Shown here piece by piece: positions 3,878 through 47,894 of a DNA stretch of 47,894 bases. A program made the position numbers and the translations under genes. Every line of letters starts with the position of its first letter. Position 1 is the first letter of the stretch. Origin of the DNA: a virus; UHGV virus genome UHGV-1372926. One strand, written 5' to 3'. A model generated the notes under the pieces. That model did no database searches, was not told where the DNA came from, and worked only from the letters and a program-made list of their open reading frames with translations.

Positions 3878-3907
3878 AAAAAAAAAGGCCGCAAGGCCTT
3901 TTTTTCT
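3878..3907. terminator. bidirectional rho-independent terminator
   Basis: A9-GGCC-GCAA-GGCC-T7. Palindromic stem with GNRA-like loop flanked by A-run and T-run, between convergent ssb (+) and tail fiber (-). Confidence 0.7.
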
Positions 3908-15928: not shown

Positions 15929-16005
15929 GCACCATTAGCTCATCAGGATAGAGCAATTGCCTTCTAAGCAATCGGTAACTGGTTCGAATCCAGTATGGTG
16001 CACCA
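15929..16005 (+). tRNA. tRNA-Arg (anticodon TCT)
   Basis: Manual cloverleaf fold. Acceptor GCACCAT/ATGGTGC. D-stem GCTC/GAGC. Anticodon stem ATTGC/GCAAT with loop CTTCTAA. T-stem ACTGG/CCAGT with loop TTCGAAT. Discriminator A plus CCA. Confidence 0.8.
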
Positions 16006-16008
16006 AAT

Positions 16009-16085
16009 TCCCGTTTAGCTTAACTGGTTAAAGCACCCGACTCATAATCGGATGATTACAGGTTCGAATCCTGTCGCGGGAACCA
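16009..16085 (+). tRNA. tRNA-Met/fMet or Ile2-type (anticodon CAT)
   Basis: Manual fold. D-stem GCTT/AAGC. Anticodon loop CTCATAA. T-stem ACAGG/CCTGT with loop TTCGAAT. 3' CGCGGGA-A-CCA. One mismatch each in acceptor and anticodon stems. Confidence 0.65.
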
Positions 16086-36849: not shown

Positions 36850-38274
36850 TTATCTCCTGCTTCTTCTAATCCAACCAGAGCCACGCTGTACAATATAGTC
36901 ATTCAGTGCATAGCGCACAGCATCCCAATAGTGGTTGTATTTATCAACTATTTCAGTGAGCACAAGGCCTGTGTTCTTGTCGACCTTATGGCTGTACATC
37001 GCAGCCTCGTTTTTCATTTCCGTGCAGCGGTCGTGAATGATGATGTTGTCGCAACCCCTGAGCCATGTCACGCCATCCTCAACGCTGCCGGGCCATTTGT
37101 TGCACGGGTGAATATCGAACCCAGCTCTCTTAATGTGGCTGATGGTTTCCGGCCTTGATGAGTCAGCATACCAGCGAGCCTTGCGCGCCATCGGAAATGC
37201 CTGGTCCATTGCTGCCGGGTGATCGGTAATCTCAAGATGAACCTTGCCATACTCACGATTAATATAAACGTTGCGCCGGTCGCCGGGCAGGTTTTCCACC
37301 CAAACCTCAACCATTGCGGCAGGGTCGCCAGAGAAACCGAAGTCCATGCCGTGATACGGGCCATGCCATTCAGGCTTAACCTCAAACGATGCAGTACGCC
37401 ATTTCCCGCCGAAGACCTGCTCATCACTGCGTTTATTAAACTTTCCTTCCCAAATCCAGAGATAGCGGTCGAAGTCGACTGCCTTCATTTTCTCCATGGA
37501 CGCCGGGAGCGGGGTGTCATAAAACCACGGGTTATCGCGGTAATTACACTCAATGATTAATGTGTCATCGTCCTCATAGATACCATCAACCATCTTATCG
37601 TAATAGGGCGCCACCCACTGAGTCCACGTGGCATCGGTTTCTTTGTTGGGGTTGAATGTCACCCATATCTCAGAACCTTCTGCGCGGATGGTAGGCTCAA
37701 GGATGTCCCACGATGCCTGGCTGACGTTTTCTGCCTCCTCCACCCACGCTTTCGATATGCCGGCAAAACCCTTGACGCCAGTGATGTTGCGATAAAGGCC
37801 ACGGAACCTGAATTTTGATTTCGTTCGTTTGTGGGTTATCTTGCCATCGATACAGCGATATTCTGATGATTCGCCTTTACGGTCGATTTCATCCACCAGC
37901 TCCTGATAGCTGGAGTCCTCGATAGACTGCTGAATTTCACGGAAGCAGCCAATACGCTCCGGCCTGAATCGCGCGGACTCGGTGAGTATGGTTGCCACGG
38001 TACGGGTCTTTGTTGATGCACGACCGCCAAAGACGACCTTATTACGCTTCGGATAAAGCAGCCTTTCGAGTTTTGCGGGGATTAAATGGTCGGCCTGCGT
38101 GGTTGCATGGGTGACATCTTCAACGCCGTTAGCGGTCATTCTGAGGCGCTTGATGACATTCTTCTGCATATCGCAGATGCCGAAGATGGCCGACTCCGCA
38201 ACATCGGTCATCGCATCATCCACCTGCGCCTCCAGCTTTTCGATTGCCAGTGCAGAGAGGCGCTTACGAGCCAT
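36850..38274 (-). CDS. terminase large subunit
   Basis: 474 aa ORF with ATPase N-terminal half and nuclease C-terminal half. Overlapped by the small subunit gene. Confidence 0.75.
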   Translation of the reverse strand: MARKRLSALAIEKLEAQVDDAMTDVAESAIFGICDMQKNVIKRLRMTANGVEDVTHATTQADHLIPAKLERLLYPKRNKVVFGGRASTKTRTVATILTESARFRPERIGCFREIQQSIEDSSYQELVDEIDRKGESSEYRCIDGKITHKRTKSKFRFRGLYRNITGVKGFAGISKAWVEEAENVSQASWDILEPTIRAEGSEIWVTFNPNKETDATWTQWVAPYYDKMVDGIYEDDDTLIIECNYRDNPWFYDTPLPASMEKMKAVDFDRYLWIWEGKFNKRSDEQVFGGKWRTASFEVKPEWHGPYHGMDFGFSGDPAAMVEVWVENLPGDRRNVYINREYGKVHLEITDHPAAMDQAFPMARKARWYADSSRPETISHIKRAGFDIHPCNKWPGSVEDGVTWLRGCDNIIIHDRCTEMKNEAAMYSHKVDKNTGLVLTEIVDKYNHYWDAVRYALNDYIVQRGSGWIRRSRR

Positions 38275-39903: not shown

Positions 39904-40076
39904 TGTCTGGCTCCCCTTCCAAGTTCTGCGCAAATAAATCCTGCTATAGTCGCGCCGCAGTGCCCGTAAATAAGCGCCCAAACAGGCACGTCAATCTTTG
40001 CCGCTACCATGCTTATCGGCGTAGCTCCCAAGCCGATGAATGCAATAGTGAGATAAATTTTCCAACGCTCCGTCAT
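39900..40076 (-). CDS. small membrane protein (58 aa)
   Basis: Two hydrophobic helices (IYLTIAFIGLGATPISMVAA and VWALIYGHCGATIAGFICA). ATGA-coupled at both ends. Confidence 0.4.
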   Translation of the reverse strand: MTERWKIYLTIAFIGLGATPISMVAAKIDVPVWALIYGHCGATIAGFICAELGRGARQ

Positions 40077-40561
40077 CACTCAGCCTCCACCTTGATGCCA
40101 GCGGCGCGACGAATTTCCCAGAGCACCCTGGGAACTCCGCCATTACCAACCGGGTCACGCTTGTCTTTCAATGCCACGCTTGACGCCGCCCAACCGGGCC
40201 TGGCTGGCAACTCTTTGACGCGGACGAAACCAGCAGCGCGCAGCGATGCACCGGATTCGTCAGCCTGGGTGTATGTGATGCAGCGGTGATAGCCCATTGC
40301 GCGAGCCGCTCGCCATACCGCGCCGTACAGAGCGCTGTTGGCGTTACGCTCACCAGTAGTGCAGGTGCGATTGACCTCAATTGTCAGGCCGTCGTCAAAG
40401 TGGCGAGCAACCGGGCGACCAGCCGTCGCAACGCCAATCAGTTCGCCCGCGGCGTTTTTCAGCCCGATACTGAATTTGTGTCCGCGTGGCGGTTTGTTAT
40501 GTCTGTGATGCTGGGCGATAAATGCCTGCGCCGTCTTCAGCGTTATTGGTGAGATGACCAT
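40076..40561 (-). CDS. hypothetical protein (possible acyltransferase-like fold)
   Basis: 161 aa ORF. Basic, Gly/Ala-rich. Fold assignment is tentative. Confidence 0.4.
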   Translation of the reverse strand: MVISPITLKTAQAFIAQHHRHNKPPRGHKFSIGLKNAAGELIGVATAGRPVARHFDDGLTIEVNRTCTTGERNANSALYGAVWRAARAMGYHRCITYTQADESGASLRAAGFVRVKELPARPGWAASSVALKDKRDPVGNGGVPRVLWEIRRAAGIKVEAE

Positions 40562-42112: not shown

Positions 42113-42313
42113 TTAGTTTCCACCAGATGACACGATAACCTGCTCAAGCACTCTCTGCTTGCCTTCGCCTATAAAAACGCGACAGACGCGCTTACCGTTG
42201 CTGTATGCATGCATTGCCTGCGCCATCATAAAGTTTTGCGCTTTCACTGCGCCCATTTCTGGCTCCAGTTGTGTGCGTGTGTAGATTGCTTTGGTCATTC
42301 TGAGATACTCCAT
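42113..42313 (-). CDS. hypothetical small protein
   Basis: 66 aa ORF. Confidence 0.4.
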   Translation of the reverse strand: MEYLRMTKAIYTRTQLEPEMGAVKAQNFMMAQAMHAYSNGKRVCRVFIGEGKQRVLEQVIVSSGGN

Positions 42314-42333
42314 TTAGCGTGAAGGCATTCTGG

Positions 42334-42517
42334 TTACAGGCAGAAGCTTTTCGTACCCATATCATTTACGATTTCGAATCCAAATTCTGTTTTTATTTTT
42401 CCGTACTGGCATTCATCACCAATAGCAGAAACAATCTCATAAGACTTACCCTCTGTCAGATAGCCGCCTGAGCCAAGTTTTACTTCTGTTGCTGTAACAA
42501 TTTGTCCTTTTTTTCAT
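42334..42517 (-). CDS. small protein gene requiring a +1 shift at an A7 run (ATG AAA AAA AGG ...)
   Basis: ATG with RBS AAGAGGTGA opens a frame that terminates after 23 codons. The +1 frame encodes a protein-like 60 aa continuation (KKGQIVTATEVKLGSGGYLTEGKSYEIVSAIGDECQYGKIKTEFGFEIVNDMGTKSFCL). The T7 run is at 42508-42514 on the + strand. Confidence 0.4.
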
Positions 42518-42548
42518 TCTTCATCACCTCTTTGTTGTTGGTGTGGTA

Positions 42549-42577
42549 ACTATACGATGGCGCTCAATCTACGTCAA
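42549..42577 (-). promoter_or_regulatory. sigma70-like promoter TTGACG-N17-TATAGT (leftward) with the GTAGATTGA box
   Basis: Reverse strand reads TTGACGTAGATTGAGCGCCATCGTATAGT. Drives the 42517 to 41396 leftward operon. Confidence 0.55.
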
Positions 42578-42633
42578 TATGGTGGTGAAAATAAATCCGA
42601 TTGGGGTAGTTTTTTGCTCGTGGGGCAGGCCTT

Positions 42634-42894
42634 GGGGAAGGTCGTCTTCCCCATATTTTTTACACATTTCCTTTGTTTTTATTGGTTTTTTTTGAAAAGG
42701 GTTAAAAGGGTTAGATTTGACCAGCATCCACTTATAAACATCCCCAATAATCCATATTTTAATTTAATGTTAAATTACTATCTATAATATGAATAATAAT
42801 ATTCCCCTTTAACCCTAATAATAATATTATTGTTATATTACATATACTTAGATAGTTAATGCGTGGGGAAGGTGGTGCGCCCCACGGCTTCCCC
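42634..42894. repeat. candidate replication origin: two TGGGGAAGG...CTTCCCCA inverted repeats flanking tandem AAAGGGTTA iterons and an AT-rich tract
   Basis: IR1 at 42634-42652 (GGGGAAG-gtcgt-CTTCCCC). IR2 at 42865-42894. Tandem 9-mers AAAGGGTTA at 42696-42713 with inverted copies TTAACCCT at 42809 and TAACCCT at 42898. Long AT-rich stretch 42740-42860 with AATAATAATATT x2. Confidence 0.45.
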
Positions 42895-42925
42895 AGCTAA
42901 CCCTGTAGCCAGCAAAAACGTAGCA

Positions 42926-42954
42926 TTGCTATCTCTGCTATATTTTTATATAAT
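42926..42954 (+). promoter_or_regulatory. near-consensus sigma70 promoter TTGCTA-N17-TATAAT
   Basis: -35 TTGCTA at 42926-42931. 17 bp spacer. -10 TATAAT at 42949-42954. Upstream of the small HTH gene and the DUF3987-like gene. Confidence 0.55.
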
Positions 42955-42986
42955 CATGGCAACCAATGAGGCTGGAAGGAGGTATC

Positions 42987-43199
42987 GTGTTAAAGAAAAA
43001 ATCAAAAATGAACACCGTGAGGGATGCTGTGTCAACCATGAAGGTTGATGAGTGTAAGGTTGTAAACCTTTCAACTATTGGTATTGAGGCTGCTTTATTC
43101 AGAATGTGCCTTTCGAAGATTTCAAAAAACAGCACTCGAATTTACTGGACAAAGTACAACAGAGATAATTCTGAAATTACTATTTTAAGGGTTCAGTGA
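42987..43199 (+). CDS. small HTH-like protein (putative origin-binding or regulator)
   Basis: GTG at 42987 7 nt after GGAAGGAGG. Alternative ATG at 43008. Segment STIGIEAALFRMCLSKI is HTH-like. ATGA-coupled to the next gene. Confidence 0.4.
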   Translation: MLKKKSKMNTVRDAVSTMKVDECKVVNLSTIGIEAALFRMCLSKISKNSTRIYWTKYNRDNSEITILRVQ

Positions 43200-44752
43200 T
43201 GATTACAGCTCAGGACATATTCAATCAGGCAAGAGAAGCGCACACCTCTGCTGCGCGCGTAGCCATTCATCATGGCATGACACCAAGCCATAACATGTGG
43301 CCGGAAATCAAGGAGGGTCAGGAGAAGGATGTAACATACTCGGAGATAGAACTTACCAGCGACAACAGGAAAGACCTGATAACCCGCTACTCAGTTGCAG
43401 CAGCAAGGGCTGTGCAATTCCCCGTTAGCACATCATTCATGCACCTGCTGGGATGCGTAGCCAGTGCCATGACGCGAAATTTTAGCGTTGAATACTACGG
43501 TTCTGAATTGCCTGTTTCCTTGTACGTGGTGACGTCGCAGCCTCCATCTGCTGGCAAGACAGCTATCAACTCAATGCACATGAACCCGATAAAAATTGAG
43601 TATGACAACCTGTCAAAAAAGATGGAGAAGGAAATTGTAAAGATAAACATTCGCATTGAAGACCTGATGAAGGCTTACAAGGAGGCGACGAATCAGAACG
43701 CGAAGGCCATCATTGGAGATGATATTGCGAAAGAGAAGGAGAAACTGGAAAGCCTTTACACCATCACCTACCCGTTAACCGACGCAACACCAGAAGCTGT
43801 GCAGCACCAGGCAATTCATGAAGGTGGATTTTTCAACCTGATAAGTGATGAAGCAAGCGTTTTAAATACATGTCTTGGCCTTTCGTATGGCAAAGATGGT
43901 GGAAAGTCTAACGCCGAGGTCATCCTGAAAGGCTGGGATGGCGGTTTTGTTGGCTCAGCTCGCGTTGGTCGCGGTGTTTCATCTGGCTATGTGCTTGGTA
44001 ATATCAGCGTCATTGCGCAGGATGAAAGTATTGACGCCATTCTGTCTGCTGGTGACAGAGGTAATGGATTGTCAGAGCGATTCCTGATGCTTCGTGAGCA
44101 GTCAATGCTGGGTTATCGTGAGCATTGGGATGTGGAAAATGATTGCCCGGTAAGTAAGCCAATGCCTAAAGAACTAAAGGCAGAATATGCCAGATTTGTG
44201 CATAACCTTGTGGTTTCTGAGAAGGTTGTTTTCTCTCTCGCTAAAGAATCTCAACGTATGATTGGACTTTTGCGAAACCAGTGGGAAAAGAATTTTCTGC
44301 CTGGTGGCAAATGGGATCACGTTTTGCTTCGTGGCGCCATGGGTAAGGCTGACAAACAGATAATCAGGCTTTCGGCAATATTCCATGCCGCTGAAAACTG
44401 GTGCGATGGCGGTCGTCGCTCAAAAATTATTGGTGAGGAGCATATAAGCCGCGCCATAAGCGTTTATGATGCACTAACAAAAACATTTACCGATGCCGTT
44501 GAGTCAAATGGATACGCTGGCGAGAAATCTGAAATTGATGTTGTTGCTGAAAAATTGCGTACAGCTGCGCAAAAAGGAAAGACAAATGTCACGGTGAAAT
44601 GGCTTTATGATTCACTAAAAAACGTTAGGCCATTCAAGGGCATACCGCATATTTACGACAGACTCAAGTCAAACGTTTTGCCGTCTCTTGAAGAAGATGG
44701 ATATTGCGTATTCCTCAATAATACTGTTTACCTGAATCCAAGGCTTAAATGA
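43196..44752 (+). CDS. replication ATPase / helicase-like protein (DUF3987 / P4 alpha C-terminal-like)
   Basis: 518 aa ORF with P-loop TSQPPSAGKT and downstream acidic LISDEAS (Walker B-like). Adjacent to the candidate origin and the primase. Confidence 0.55.
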   Translation: MMITAQDIFNQAREAHTSAARVAIHHGMTPSHNMWPEIKEGQEKDVTYSEIELTSDNRKDLITRYSVAAARAVQFPVSTSFMHLLGCVASAMTRNFSVEYYGSELPVSLYVVTSQPPSAGKTAINSMHMNPIKIEYDNLSKKMEKEIVKINIRIEDLMKAYKEATNQNAKAIIGDDIAKEKEKLESLYTITYPLTDATPEAVQHQAIHEGGFFNLISDEASVLNTCLGLSYGKDGGKSNAEVILKGWDGGFVGSARVGRGVSSGYVLGNISVIAQDESIDAILSAGDRGNGLSERFLMLREQSMLGYREHWDVENDCPVSKPMPKELKAEYARFVHNLVVSEKVVFSLAKESQRMIGLLRNQWEKNFLPGGKWDHVLLRGAMGKADKQIIRLSAIFHAAENWCDGGRRSKIIGEEHISRAISVYDALTKTFTDAVESNGYAGEKSEIDVVAEKLRTAAQKGKTNVTVKWLYDSLKNVRPFKGIPHIYDRLKSNVLPSLEEDGYCVFLNNTVYLNPRLK

Positions 44753-45048
44753 TGAATAGATTACAAAGAAGAGTTGTATGTGCAGCAAATAAATATGATT
44801 GCGGATACGGCGGGATTGATATGGTTTTTATAGGTGTTAGACATTTCTGCCCGGTAATGCGTCAGAATATGGAGCCACATAAGGATTTCATAAAGCGAGA
44901 ATCTGAAGTGCAAGGGTTCATTGACCAATTCGGTGTGTTTATGGACAGGAAAGAGGCGCTTGAGGTAGCAAGAAATGCGGGACAACTAAATATTGCTCGA
45001 ATAAAGACATGGCCTGATAATGAGTTGTTCAGCGAAGATTTATATTGA
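44749..45048 (+). CDS. hypothetical protein
   Basis: 99 aa ORF, ATGA-coupled. Confidence 0.4.
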   Translation: MMNRLQRRVVCAANKYDCGYGGIDMVFIGVRHFCPVMRQNMEPHKDFIKRESEVQGFIDQFGVFMDRKEALEVARNAGQLNIARIKTWPDNELFSEDLY

Positions 45049-45051
45049 ACA

Positions 45052-45085
45052 AAAAACCCTCCTGATGGAGGGTTTATTTTTTTAG
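45052..45085. terminator. bidirectional rho-independent terminator
   Basis: AAAAAA-CCCTCC-TGAT-GGAGGG-TTTATTTTTTT between the convergent + gene and the primase. Confidence 0.75.
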
Positions 45086-45958
45086 TGCTTCAAATAGCTC
45101 TTCTGGTTTGTACAGCCTTTTTCTGATGGCGCCACTGTAACGAATATCCCGCCCGTCATCAGTAATCAGTATTGGCAGGCCGGCATTCTCGGCGGCGCAT
45201 ACCTCATCGAAATCATTATTAATGATGCAGCGCAGTTTAGTTCGCTGTTCATCGCTCACATTGCGCACAACTTCCCACATGTTCTCCGGCGACCAGCAAC
45301 ACCAGACATGTGCGCCGGTAAGCCGGTGTGCTCGCCAGGCATCGAAGTAATCCGCAACCAGGTATGTCCACTCCGAATTATTGCCAATCGGTGTCACTGC
45401 GCCGCGCGTAAGTCTTCCGCGAGTGTACTCATGGCTGAAACCCGCGCGAAATGACACGCTTTCATCATCAGCCAGAAAAGCCACATTGCATGGTGTCATA
45501 GTTCCAGCAATATAGAGCGGTATCGCCACCAGTTCACCGGTTTTACCGGTTATGGTGTCGCCTCCTGCTTTTTCCATGATGGCCTCCACTTCTGCCTCTG
45601 TCAGGTAGTCAGAAGCATGGTTGACCTTCGGAAGTTGCTTTCTAATCGCCTCAAGTTTTTCGCGTGGGTGCATGTTCAGAAATCCGGCCAGTGCCTCCAT
45701 TGACTCTGGAAACGTCATTCCTGACAGCTTCATTAGCCAGGTGATGCCGCTGCCGTTTCCGCACTGGTTGCAGATGGCGCCGCCGTCGCCTTTGTAGTCT
45801 AAGTGGTCATCGAATCTAAACCTGTCCTTTCCAGCGCAACTTGGGCATGGCTGATGTTTACCATTGAAAATTCTCACGTCGACATTGACTATCGACATGA
45901 TGGCCGCCTGCCAGTTACCTACCATTAAAGGCTCTATATCCTTCCAGTCGTATCGCAT
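45074..45958 (-). CDS. DNA primase (CHC2 zinc finger + Toprim, P4 alpha N-terminal-like)
   Basis: 294 aa ORF with zinc-binding CPSCAGKDRFRF...CNQCG. Acidic Toprim-like segment (LVADYF..., ITDDGRD). Confidence 0.7.
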   Translation of the reverse strand: MRYDWKDIEPLMVGNWQAAIMSIVNVDVRIFNGKHQPCPSCAGKDRFRFDDHLDYKGDGGAICNQCGNGSGITWLMKLSGMTFPESMEALAGFLNMHPREKLEAIRKQLPKVNHASDYLTEAEVEAIMEKAGGDTITGKTGELVAIPLYIAGTMTPCNVAFLADDESVSFRAGFSHEYTRGRLTRGAVTPIGNNSEWTYLVADYFDAWRAHRLTGAHVWCCWSPENMWEVVRNVSDEQRTKLRCIINNDFDEVCAAENAGLPILITDDGRDIRYSGAIRKRLYKPEELFEALKK

Positions 45959-46032: not shown

Positions 46033-47894
46033 GTGCAAAAAATTGATGCAATGATTGCTGAGCTGGATATGGATAAGCTGCGGTCCAGCATCCATACCGG
46101 GGAAATTGAACCGCGCCCCTATCAGTGGCTGGTATATGAAAAGACAGCAGAGGTTATCCGCAAGTTTGGTAAGCAGCCAAAGCCAAGTTATGTTACCGCT
46201 TCAGTTGGCGCCGGTAAGACCATCATGATAGCCATGATTGCCCGTCGTTTCCAGGATATGGGATGGGAGGGTCTTGTCATCGCGCGCCAAGGCGAAATTA
46301 TTGAGCAGGATGCAGAGGAACTCTGGAATCTGAGCGTAAAAAACTCTGTGTTTAGCGCTTCACTTGGGCGTAAGGCTTATGCCTACCCGCTTATCGCGGG
46401 AACAGAGGGCACAATAATAAATGGCCTTTTTGATAAGACAGCCGATGATGGAACCGTGACGAAATCACTGTTATCAGACTTTTCCCCGCGCTACATACTG
46501 GTTGATGAATGCCATCAGGTTAACTGGCAGGACATAATATCAGAGCAGCCAGAGACGCAGTACGGCGTCATCATGAATGAACTTAACCGGCGCTGCAAAG
46601 CAAAATATGGGCATGAGGTGATTGTCATTGGCTACACCGGCAGCCCATTTCGCGGCGTTGAGTCGATCAAGGGGGCTTACTGGAAACACGAAATCGTCAA
46701 CATCAGCACGAAATACCTTGTCGATCTTGGGTTTCTTGTTCCTACCATATTTGGTGGGCAGGATATCGAGGACTTGCAATACGATCTGCATGATTTTGCC
46801 AGTAGTGACGTTGACGGAGTGCAGGACTTCACTGATAGCCAGCTAAAAGAGATGCAGGAAGAAATCCTCAAGCAAGGTACATTGACGCAAAAAATAATGC
46901 TCAAAGTCATGGAGCTTACGCGCGACAGGCTCGGTGTACTCATTACCTGCGCCGGTAAAAAACATTGCAAGGAGGCTGCAAAATACTTACCAGAAGGAAG
47001 TTATTCCATTGTTACCGAGGATATGGGGCAGAAAGCCAGACGGAAAGCACTGAAAGATGCGGCCACCGGGCGTAAAAAATACACGCTGCAAATAGGTTGC
47101 CTGACGACTGGCGTCAACATCCCATATTGGGACACGTCTGTCATCCTGAGAAAAATCATGTCCCTGACTCTTCTTACGCAGTTGCTTGGCCGACCAATGC
47201 GCCTGTTGAAGCCTGAGCAGATTGCCGCAGGTCTGGTGAAAGAAAACCATCTTTGCCTTGACTTCACCGGAACCATGTTCGAGTTGGGCGGTCTGTACGA
47301 AGACCCGATTCTGGAAGAGGCAGAAGCGCAACGCTCAAAACGTAGCGGAGAGCAGGTTCCATGTCCTAAATGCCAGACGATGAACAGCCCATATGCACGG
47401 CGTTGCATCGGTAAAGACTCAACGTCTCCAGATGGACGATGCGAAGAGTTTTTCAGCTTCATTCGCTGTGGTTTCGACAAGCACGGCATCCGTATTTTTG
47501 ATGATGGTTGCGGCACAAAAAACGACCCGACAGCTCGTTATTGCCGTCAATGCGATCACGTTTTGCGCGACCCTAACGCGGCGCTTAATGAGCGTGCATA
47601 TACCGATTCTGAATGGACCGAAGTCAAGGATTTCAAGATTGAGCTAACGAAAGATGAGAAGGGTGTTGTTTATCGTTATTTCATCACGAAAGAAAACGGA
47701 AAGGATGGCTGGGCCAGTGAGGTGTTCTATCCATTTGGCAGGCAGGAGAAGTACCTTAAAAATCAGTTTAAGATTAAAGGATTACTAAACCACGTATCAG
47801 ACAGGAATCTGATTGATAACCTCATGAATTGCCACAACGCAAAAGCATTCATGGCGTTCACTGGTCTTATCCGCGCGCCAAAACGCATAACGCA
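46033..47894 (+). CDS. SF2 (DEAD/DEAH-box, DECH) helicase, 3' partial (runs off window end)
   Basis: GTG start 5 nt after AAGGTGG. Open frame to the window end, so absent from the ORF track. Walker A ASVGAGKT. Motif II LVDECHQV. C-terminal region has several CxxC pairs (CPKCQ, RRC, CRQCDH). Confidence 0.75.
   Translation, partial: MQKIDAMIAELDMDKLRSSIHTGEIEPRPYQWLVYEKTAEVIRKFGKQPKPSYVTASVGAGKTIMIAMIARRFQDMGWEGLVIARQGEIIEQDAEELWNLSVKNSVFSASLGRKAYAYPLIAGTEGTIINGLFDKTADDGTVTKSLLSDFSPRYILVDECHQVNWQDIISEQPETQYGVIMNELNRRCKAKYGHEVIVIGYTGSPFRGVESIKGAYWKHEIVNISTKYLVDLGFLVPTIFGGQDIEDLQYDLHDFASSDVDGVQDFTDSQLKEMQEEILKQGTLTQKIMLKVMELTRDRLGVLITCAGKKHCKEAAKYLPEGSYSIVTEDMGQKARRKALKDAATGRKKYTLQIGCLTTGVNIPYWDTSVILRKIMSLTLLTQLLGRPMRLLKPEQIAAGLVKENHLCLDFTGTMFELGGLYEDPILEEAEAQRSKRSGEQVPCPKCQTMNSPYARRCIGKDSTSPDGRCEEFFSFIRCGFDKHGIRIFDDGCGTKNDPTARYCRQCDHVLRDPNAALNERAYTDSEWTEVKDFKIELTKDEKGVVYRYFITKENGKDGWASEVFYPFGRQEKYLKNQFKIKGLLNHVSDRNLIDNLMNCHNAKAFMAFTGLIRAPKRIT

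Follow-up and report, generated by a model that had tools for sequence, protein, structure and literature searches.

What does a non-coding gap of about 470 bp (42518-42986) do between the two divergent gene arms of the virus genome UHGV-1372926? The window, which here means the whole stretch of 47,894 nucleotides that was analysed, is the genome of a Roufvirus-like Klebsiella siphophage. The 3.3 kb around the element at issue are 93% identical to Klebsiella phage vB_KpnS_MK54 and 92% identical to Vibrio phage pYD38-A of the genus Roufvirus. An earlier reading of the letters alone (the original prediction) placed a candidate replication origin here and let the non-coding stretch run to 43199; the gap is real, but 43199 is the end of a small open reading frame (ORF) beyond it. 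The segment 42597-42905 within the gap is probably the replication origin of the phage, its specificity belonging to the DUF3987 (MCM-like) helicase, whose gene lies 290 bp downstream. A probability of about 0.75 is attached to this reading. It is preferred because a unique, conserved and symmetric array of repeats surrounds the weakest duplex of the genome, and because the array is inherited and exchanged together with the replicative helicase gene.

The array consists of 12 G-boxes (TGGGGNA or AGGGTTA) in about 310 bp, six per strand; those on the left are mostly direct, those on the right mostly inverted. They fall into four roughly symmetric groups. On the outer left, three direct boxes and one inverted box make up a cluster with a palindrome; a tandem pair occupies the inner left and an inverted pair the inner right; and a palindrome accompanied by inverted boxes stands on the outer right (table 1). 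The two palindromes lie 231 bp apart, start to start. In the outer-right cluster a second palindrome, TGGGGAAG-N16-CTTCCCCA at 42864-42895, overlaps the CGTGGGG-N11-CCCCACG dyad. All four genome copies of TGGGGAAG are within the two palindromes, and six of the nine copies of TGGGGNAG fall inside 300 bp. The core TGGGG occurs 40 times in the genome, eight times within 42540-42960 (421 bp; 0.35 expected). Four of the 12 copies of AGGGTTA belong to the element (0.11 expected), with inverted TAACCCT at 42810 and 42898. Alignment with relatives such as GP-1, which show TGGGGAAGTGGGGCAA at the inner-left tandem position, marks AGGGTTA as a degenerate form of the G-box. Relatives also keep an additional ATCCCC box about 12 nt upstream of the box at 42742; the version in the window has decayed to ATCCAC. 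The genome has no second G-box cluster: elsewhere no 400-bp stretch contains more than five boxes, and those few overlap this locus. The clustering of boxes and palindromes is far above chance. The features first described from the sequence, namely palindromes, tandem iterons with inverted copies and an AT-rich core with repeats of its own, all exist, displaced by at most 1 nt. Genome-wide, AGGGTTA has 12 copies against 2.7 expected from shuffles; the flanks of the eight copies outside the element (2767, 13880, 14645, 20264, 25760, 28374, 30184 and 40894) share no extended motif.

No other 100-bp duplex in the 47.9 kb is as unstable as the AT-rich core: its energy is -98.3 kcal/mol, the mean being -140.3 (standard deviation 7.6), a distance of 5.5 standard deviations. 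The next least stable 100 bp of the genome reach -115.9 kcal/mol. Both genome copies of AATAATAATATT are located here, at 42792 and 42817. The locus displays the generic marks of an iteron-type AT-rich origin: clustered short repeats, an adjacent easily melted segment, and linkage and co-variation with a helicase gene. No cluster of DnaA boxes (TTWTNCACA) was detected; a single relaxed match at 42658 is not conserved in relatives, and the genome-wide count of five equals expectation (5.1). No IHF consensus was found either.

Divergent promoters flank the element. The near-consensus rightward promoter proposed at the outset is borne out (table 1). The TTGC of its -35 hexamer is conserved, its surroundings poorly so (0.28-0.33 identity). 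The -35 of the leftward promoter (CTACGTCAA on the plus strand) is invariant across 10 relatives, and this promoter is 96-98% identical also in relatives with another replication cassette. Promoter-like sites in the region are no more numerous than in shuffles. A promoter within the AT core was considered and rejected: the core holds just a weak minus-strand TAGATA-17-TAAAAT, and the -35s near a conserved TATAAT were judged poor by eye.

Conservation was followed in an alignment of 31 distinct versions of the element, taken from public phage records, IMG/VR contigs and one contig of Logan assembled reads. Absence of the repeats in otherwise syntenic relatives had been named at the outset as the observation that would speak against an origin. 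The repeats are kept, with TGGGG/CCCCA cores, in all 31 distinct sequences whose helicase is at least 63% identical. In every IMG/VR locus above this helicase threshold and with sufficient upstream DNA, the boxes are densest (6-14 per 400 bp), and the GC content over 100 bp is lowest, at 400-570 bp upstream of the helicase gene. An extended alignment of the window with eight relatives from several genera reveals a conserved island. Identity is 0.68-0.88 in the element, 0.3-0.5 in the left-arm genes, and 0.22-0.45 in the rightward promoter and small ORF. The AT core itself reaches 0.85-0.88, no less than the helicase gene with its average of about 0.8. Palindrome spacing falls into two classes that cover 28 of the 31 sequences, 231-232 bp (19 sequences) and 222 bp (nine), and differ by about one helical turn. 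The record of Salmonella phage E1 (NC_010495) contains two 25-bp repeats GTGGGGCAACCAACCTGCCCCACGA, 231 bp apart, which are the counterparts of the two palindromes. In the public records of E1 and of Akira (NC_054647) these features are annotated as repeats only, without function. In KpV2811 (L012/L015; joined sequence ~270-290), whose helicase is 99% identical, the core is short of about 40 bp, among them the inner-right boxes; this part of the core may be dispensable, or the assembly may have collapsed there.

The palindromes also retain their pairing: 86.6% of alignment cells pair, compared with 33-53% when the partner columns are slid. Four palindrome positions have changed on both sides, mainly from A:T to C:G at the sixth stem position. 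Folded as single strands, the two palindromes give z = -2.8 and z = -2.3. Such a compensatory pattern would suit a protein site with dyad symmetry as well as it suits a hairpin. The stem changes, together with a terminator-like plus-strand site found by scanning, raise the notion that the left hairpin and its T-run (42633-42661) are the intrinsic terminator of a small non-coding RNA. This is very improbable. The T-run is missing in nine of the 28 spacing-classed relatives, those of the 222-bp class, and in locus L047, and no conserved plus-strand promoter lies upstream. Compensatory change is equally expected of a dyad protein site, and single unpaired boxes of the same sequence on both strands fit protein sites, not one RNA. 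At gathering thresholds Rfam recognizes only two transfer RNAs (tRNAs) genome-wide, and 42400-43100 is empty at E <= 1.

The element is exchanged together with the helicase gene. Homology of the window to Tbat1_6 and BUCT541 ends at 42595/42596 and restarts at 45048; the flanks are 91-97% identical and the interior is wholly replaced. VLCpiS13c shares the left border at 42596, its locus ending before any right-hand resumption. Relatives without these repeats have also lost the DUF3987 helicase. The replacement in BUCT541 and Tbat1_6 retains the order of a small ORF followed by a protein of about 500 amino acids (aa), and the primase and the superfamily 2 (SF2) helicase remain in place; the replacement in VLCpiS13c includes a large annotated primase gene on the opposite strand. 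The replacement proteins of BUCT541 and Tbat1_6 match just the C-terminal, non-primase half of PHROG 'DNA primase' families, and the Tbat1_6 protein showed no significant similarity to DUF3987 when profiles were compared. Each replacement cassette has its own set of repeats around an AT-rich gap. In BUCT541 these are GTTCCC; a 6.1-kb stretch has 12 copies, 11 of them in the gap (six direct, then 110 bp of AT-rich DNA, then mostly inverted ones). The repeats are TTATCCAA and AACC-type in Tbat1_6, and CTAAAGTC in VLCpiS13c. The AT core of Tbat1_6 (L127 3320-3375) resembles window positions 42775-42850 in short strings, ACTATCTAT...ATAATA...ACATATAC and also TACTATCTAT..ATAATA..ACATATAC; the shared primase or a host factor may use these common strings as a site.

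The element does not track the packaging genes, since similarity of the large terminase subunit (TerL) and element type disagree. Tbat1_6 has the most similar TerL (94%) but another element, and GP-1 and VLCpiS13a have the same element with a TerL only 74% identical. This bears on whether the locus could be a packaging signal or a physical genome end (cos, pac or terminal repeat), an idea suggested by four independent public records (ZCKP8, Akira, Ymer and KpV2811) that are opened inside the ~300-bp element. These opening points may come from a convention among annotators or from assembly breaking off in the 15%-GC core. A packaging role is highly unlikely, as TerL belongs to the Terminase_3 family, the element goes with the helicase cassette and not with the terminase, and the window contains neither a terminal repeat nor terminal redundancy. 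PhageTerm analyses of three relatives likewise speak against it, having indicated headful packaging with permuted, terminally redundant genomes; KlebP_265 was without obvious termini, and STGO-35-1 had preferred termini at an unstated position (PMC11769527, PMC9901506, PMC8954984).

The same layout recurs beside distant helicases. Four groups of GGGG(G)TA boxes with AT tracts are found in L044 (helicase 64% identical), in Pectobacterium phage Ymer (51%) and in L047 (38%). In L132 (39%) the grammar is the same and the box has drifted to TGGGAT/ATCC. The inner-right pair has an equivalent in L044, L047, Ymer and L130, and an ATCC/CCC variant in L132. In L130 (helicase 40% identical) a similar core is situated downstream of the helicase gene, after a terminator, with inverted double boxes embedded in AT-rich trinucleotide repeats. 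The element therefore follows the helicase gene, not the divergent promoters. In all these loci the sole protein always beside it is the DUF3987 helicase.

The arrangement in L130 also bears on whether the locus is a transcription control region only, in which boxes and palindromes would be operators or activator sites of the two divergent early promoters and have no replication role. The position between divergent promoters is what such a region would have, the outermost boxes have their centres about 60 bp upstream of the two predicted transcription starts, and the palindromes would fit a dimeric regulator. Yet about 350 bp with 12 sites and the weakest duplex in the middle far exceed the needs of two sigma-70 promoters. 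The DNA close to the right promoter is poorly conserved and the distal core nearly invariant, and in L130 core and boxes do not lie between divergent promoters at all. The candidate regulator, the small ORF, switches type while the boxes stay constant, and the swapped cassettes show classic layouts of iterons, AT gap and inverted iterons. Control of transcription alone is accordingly improbable. The central claim of the original prediction, a replication origin beside replication genes, is strengthened by the conserved island, the recurrence of the layout at distant DUF3987 helicases and the joint exchange as a cassette. The feature is, on the sequence evidence, real, strongly non-random and conserved, and the phage group very probably has its replication origin here, which had not been annotated as such.

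The helicase next to the element matches Pfam DUF3987 (5.8e-35) and phrog_2373 (1.9e-194). The primase and SF2 helicase farther on were likewise recognized by family matches, so the P-loop ATPase, primase and SF2 helicase first proposed as neighbours are all there, the primase with a zinc ribbon. Invariant residues of the DUF3987 protein include G120 and K121 of Walker A and an acidic E219 in the Walker B region. Its AlphaFold 2 (AF2) model has a mean predicted local distance difference test score (pLDDT) of 89, and all significant fold matches in the PDB are MCM subunits (best E = 4e-5); a sequence search against solved structures returned no match. The C-terminal region of the model runs helix-strand-helix-helix-strand-strand, an order typical of a winged helix. 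This C-terminus is moderately conserved also in LL5, a phage without boxes, so that the comparison is non-decisive. DUF3987 proteins have been described as replicative superfamily 6 (SF6) helicases, distant relatives of MCM with a winged helix-turn-helix at the C-terminus (PMC4889955), and 5'-3' helicase activity has been shown for one member (PMC11724360). That this helicase itself reads the boxes is given slightly less than an even chance.

A dedicated binding protein is used at many phage and plasmid origins. The boxes of an origin here could accordingly be read by another protein (the 70-77-aa small protein, the 99-aa cassette protein or a host factor), which would then recruit the helicase. 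Both small genes are within the swapped cassette. The AF2 model of the small protein, built from a 3-sequence alignment (pLDDT 87; 50-75 for other models), has the order alpha-beta-alpha-alpha-beta-beta, which resembles a winged helix. Such a separate reader is nevertheless unlikely. The position of the small ORF is taken by at least three unrelated protein types in relatives with unchanged boxes; the inner boxes are identical in DS8 (type B) and Bas78 (type C). Among 5.8 billion proteins, the type found in the window has just two clusters of homologues. In L047, L132 and L044 no 99-aa ORF accompanies the element. Neither a DnaA-box cluster nor an IHF consensus was found for a host factor, and the helicase is the only constant neighbour. 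The small protein was considered as box reader and set aside: neither a search for homologues nor three family libraries, a structure model or a fold search assigned it to DNA binding, and its type does not follow the boxes. The label of helix-turn-helix protein that it had been given from the sequence is not supported, with no match in Pfam, PHROG or NCBIfam and no significant PDB match to the model; the best (E = 0.35) was one of a mixture of KH, EPSP-synthase and MarR folds. Its most likely start is the GTG at 42987. One small-ORF type (pYD38-A, VLCpiS13e and DS8) has, by eye, an AP2-like sequence pattern.

If 42597-42905 is an origin served by the DUF3987 helicase, initiation may be pictured as follows. 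(i) Helicase protomers would bind the boxes, the C-terminal winged-helix domain being favoured for the contact. (ii) The converging orientation of the boxes and their helical phasing would set two helicase rings on the AT core in opposite directions. (iii) The AT core would melt. (iv) The separate DnaG-type primase would prime, and host polymerase would extend, no polymerase gene being reported in relatives. (v) Bidirectional replication would follow, with concatemers and headful packaging later. (vi) The flanking divergent promoters may, as pure inference, aid opening through transcription. A bolder version of this scheme is offered tentatively and is, taken as a whole, rather doubtful. It has three parts. 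The MCM-like helicase would be its own initiator, its winged helix reading the G-boxes and phased, converging arrays loading two rings head to head. The origin of a bacterial virus would thereby resemble a minimal archaeal or eukaryotic MCM origin without an Orc/Cdc6-type loader. The core, nearly invariant, would be more than meltable DNA: a specific site where the helicase enters or the primase starts.

Several points weigh against the assignment of 42597-42905 as an origin specified by this helicase. In LL5-like DUF3987 phages (36-41% identity, about 35 IMG/VR loci) G-boxes do not cluster anywhere within 3.5 kb, and the association between element and helicase is therefore limited to some lineages and does not extend to the whole family. 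The near-invariance of the AT core exceeds what simple meltability would need, and the proposed function leaves this unexplained. Boxes just upstream of both -35 hexamers would suit transcriptional control too. GC skew, suggested at the outset as a check, does place its cumulative minimum near the element, at 42530, with the maximum at 3888. Both extremes coincide with switches of gene orientation, at the minimum with the change of transcription direction, so that skew says nothing specific about replication and does not discriminate. Finally, an origin for this phage group is described in no paper found.

Table 1. Positions of the candidate origin, its sequence parts and the neighbouring genes in the 47,894-nucleotide window.
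Feature	Position	Strand	Remarks
Replication cassette exchanged as a unit (origin element, rightward promoter, small ORF, DUF3987 helicase, 99-aa ORF)	42597..45047	.	homology borders
Leftward promoter TTGACG-17-TATAGT	42549..42577	-	outside swapped cassette
Pair of direct G-boxes on the outer left, TGGGGTAG at 42602 and TGGGGCAG at 42621	42602..42628	+	TGGGG cores invariant in the 31-version alignment
Left palindrome TGGGGAAG-GTCGT-CTTCCCCA (N5), two inverted G-boxes	42633..42653	.	followed by T-run, 42654-42661
Inner-left tandem boxes AAAGGGTTA x2, 9-bp spacing	42696..42713	+	degenerate G-boxes
Single inverted G-box, CCCCA	42742..42746	-	
AT-rich core, candidate DNA unwinding element, 15% GC	42754..42853	.	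inverted AT-rich arms at 42779-42803 and 42820-42844
Paired inverted boxes CCCCTTTAACCCT of the inner-right group, within AT core	42804..42816	-	
Outer-right cluster: palindrome CGTGGGG-N11-CCCCACG (42862-42886), then inverted TAACCCT at 42898-42904	42862..42904	.	
Rightward promoter TTGCTA-17-TATAAT	42926..42954	+	10/12 consensus matches
Small ORF, function unknown	42987..43199	+	70 aa from GTG 42987 behind GGAAGGAGG; 77 aa if from ATG 42966
DUF3987 helicase (SF6, MCM-like AAA+), 518 aa, C-terminal winged-helix-like domain	43196..44752	+	candidate origin-specific helicase/initiator
99-aa ORF, final gene of cassette	44749..45048	+	phrog_839, function unknown
DnaG-type primase, N-terminal zinc ribbon (Zn_Ribbon_Prim)	45074..45958	-	family match; stays when cassette swapped
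SF2 helicase (ResIII + Helicase_C), truncated by window end	46051..47894	+	family match

The wider setting is that of two gene arms leaving the gap in opposite directions. The left arm consists of minus-strand small genes, followed by a Mom-like gene and the large terminase gene (36850-38274, Terminase_3 family); the homologous region of MK54 also has an annotated HNH endonuclease. The Mom-like DNA-modification protein of this leftward early arm (40076-40561, minus strand) matches phrog_1384 at 1.3e-39, with Pfam Mom slightly under the cut-off. The first gene of the arm (42300-42517, minus strand), a homologue of the 73-aa VPRG_00051 of pYD38-A, is disrupted in the window. The A-run after its ATG has seven A against six in pYD38-A and GP-1, which shifts the frame, and a change of TAC to TAA gives an extra stop close to the 3' end. 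The disruption is either a homopolymer sequencing error or a pseudogene. The right arm has five genes: the small ORF, the DUF3987 helicase, the 99-aa ORF, the minus-strand primase and the SF2 helicase. The window is probably a complete, circularly permuted genome opened within the SF2 helicase gene, because this ORF leaves the window at its end and would continue in frame at position 1. Two neighbouring tRNA genes, Arg(TCT) and Met(CAT), occupy 15929-16085.

The kind of element described, iterons around an AT-rich core by a replication gene, is textbook material and will not surprise a specialist. Its value is more specific. No origin has been annotated or described for the group formed by Roufvirus, Skatevirus, Deseoctovirus, Macdonaldcampvirus and Akiravirus, and in the literature searched no DUF3987 helicase has a characterized origin. 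Many of these phages of Klebsiella, Escherichia coli and Salmonella are under development for therapy and biocontrol. The 2.45-kb origin-plus-helicase cassette with its sharp borders is a concrete unit for engineering, and it exemplifies the swapping of replication modules among otherwise near-identical phages. How an MCM-like SF6 helicase finds its origin and opens it can, moreover, be asked here in a tractable bacterial system.

How does the element compare with known origins? The original prediction likened it to the ori/alpha arrangement of P4. There is some likeness: P4 has direct and inverted short repeats, read by the C-terminal DNA-binding domain of a helicase-containing protein, and this phage too encodes its own primase and helicase functions. 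The P4 alpha helicase belongs to superfamily 3, and that of the present phage is SF6-like. The analogy fails on the features that define P4, as neither strand of the window has TGTTCACC iterons, there is no second crr-like cluster and no fused primase-helicase, and the element adjoins the helicase gene instead of lying kilobases away.

At archaeal origins, inverted origin recognition boxes (ORBs) or mini-ORBs with G-rich strings flank a DNA unwinding element and serve to load MCM; the protein that binds the ORBs is Orc1/Cdc6 and not MCM itself. In this phage no homologue of Orc/Cdc6 was seen. The likeness is one of layout only, with no sign of common descent: G-rich boxes converge around an AT-rich unwinding element next to a gene for a helicase of MCM-like fold.

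The origin of lambda shares dyad-symmetric sites of about 20 bp by an AT-rich segment, co-variation of initiator and ori, and nearby transcription that may help. It differs in that lambda ori lies inside the O gene with its AT region on one side, and O, a dedicated binding protein, recruits host DnaB by way of P. The element described here is intergenic, symmetric and paired with a phage helicase, and no box cluster is present inside 43196-44752.

The closest layout is that of the origins of Staphylococcus aureus pathogenicity islands (SaPIs) and other phage-inducible chromosomal islands (PICIs). In these, iterons flank an AT-rich region beside the rep helicase gene of the island, and origin and helicase form a matched specificity unit. 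Repeats on both sides of an AT-rich stretch with an adjoining helicase gene are common to both. The differences are equally clear. The helicase here is DUF3987/MCM-like (SF6) and not of the SaPI Rep type, and its bearer is a virulent phage, not a satellite. The element is placed upstream of the helicase gene between divergent promoters (downstream in L130). Finally, it is built in two tiers, outer palindromes and inner double boxes, around a core that is itself conserved in sequence.

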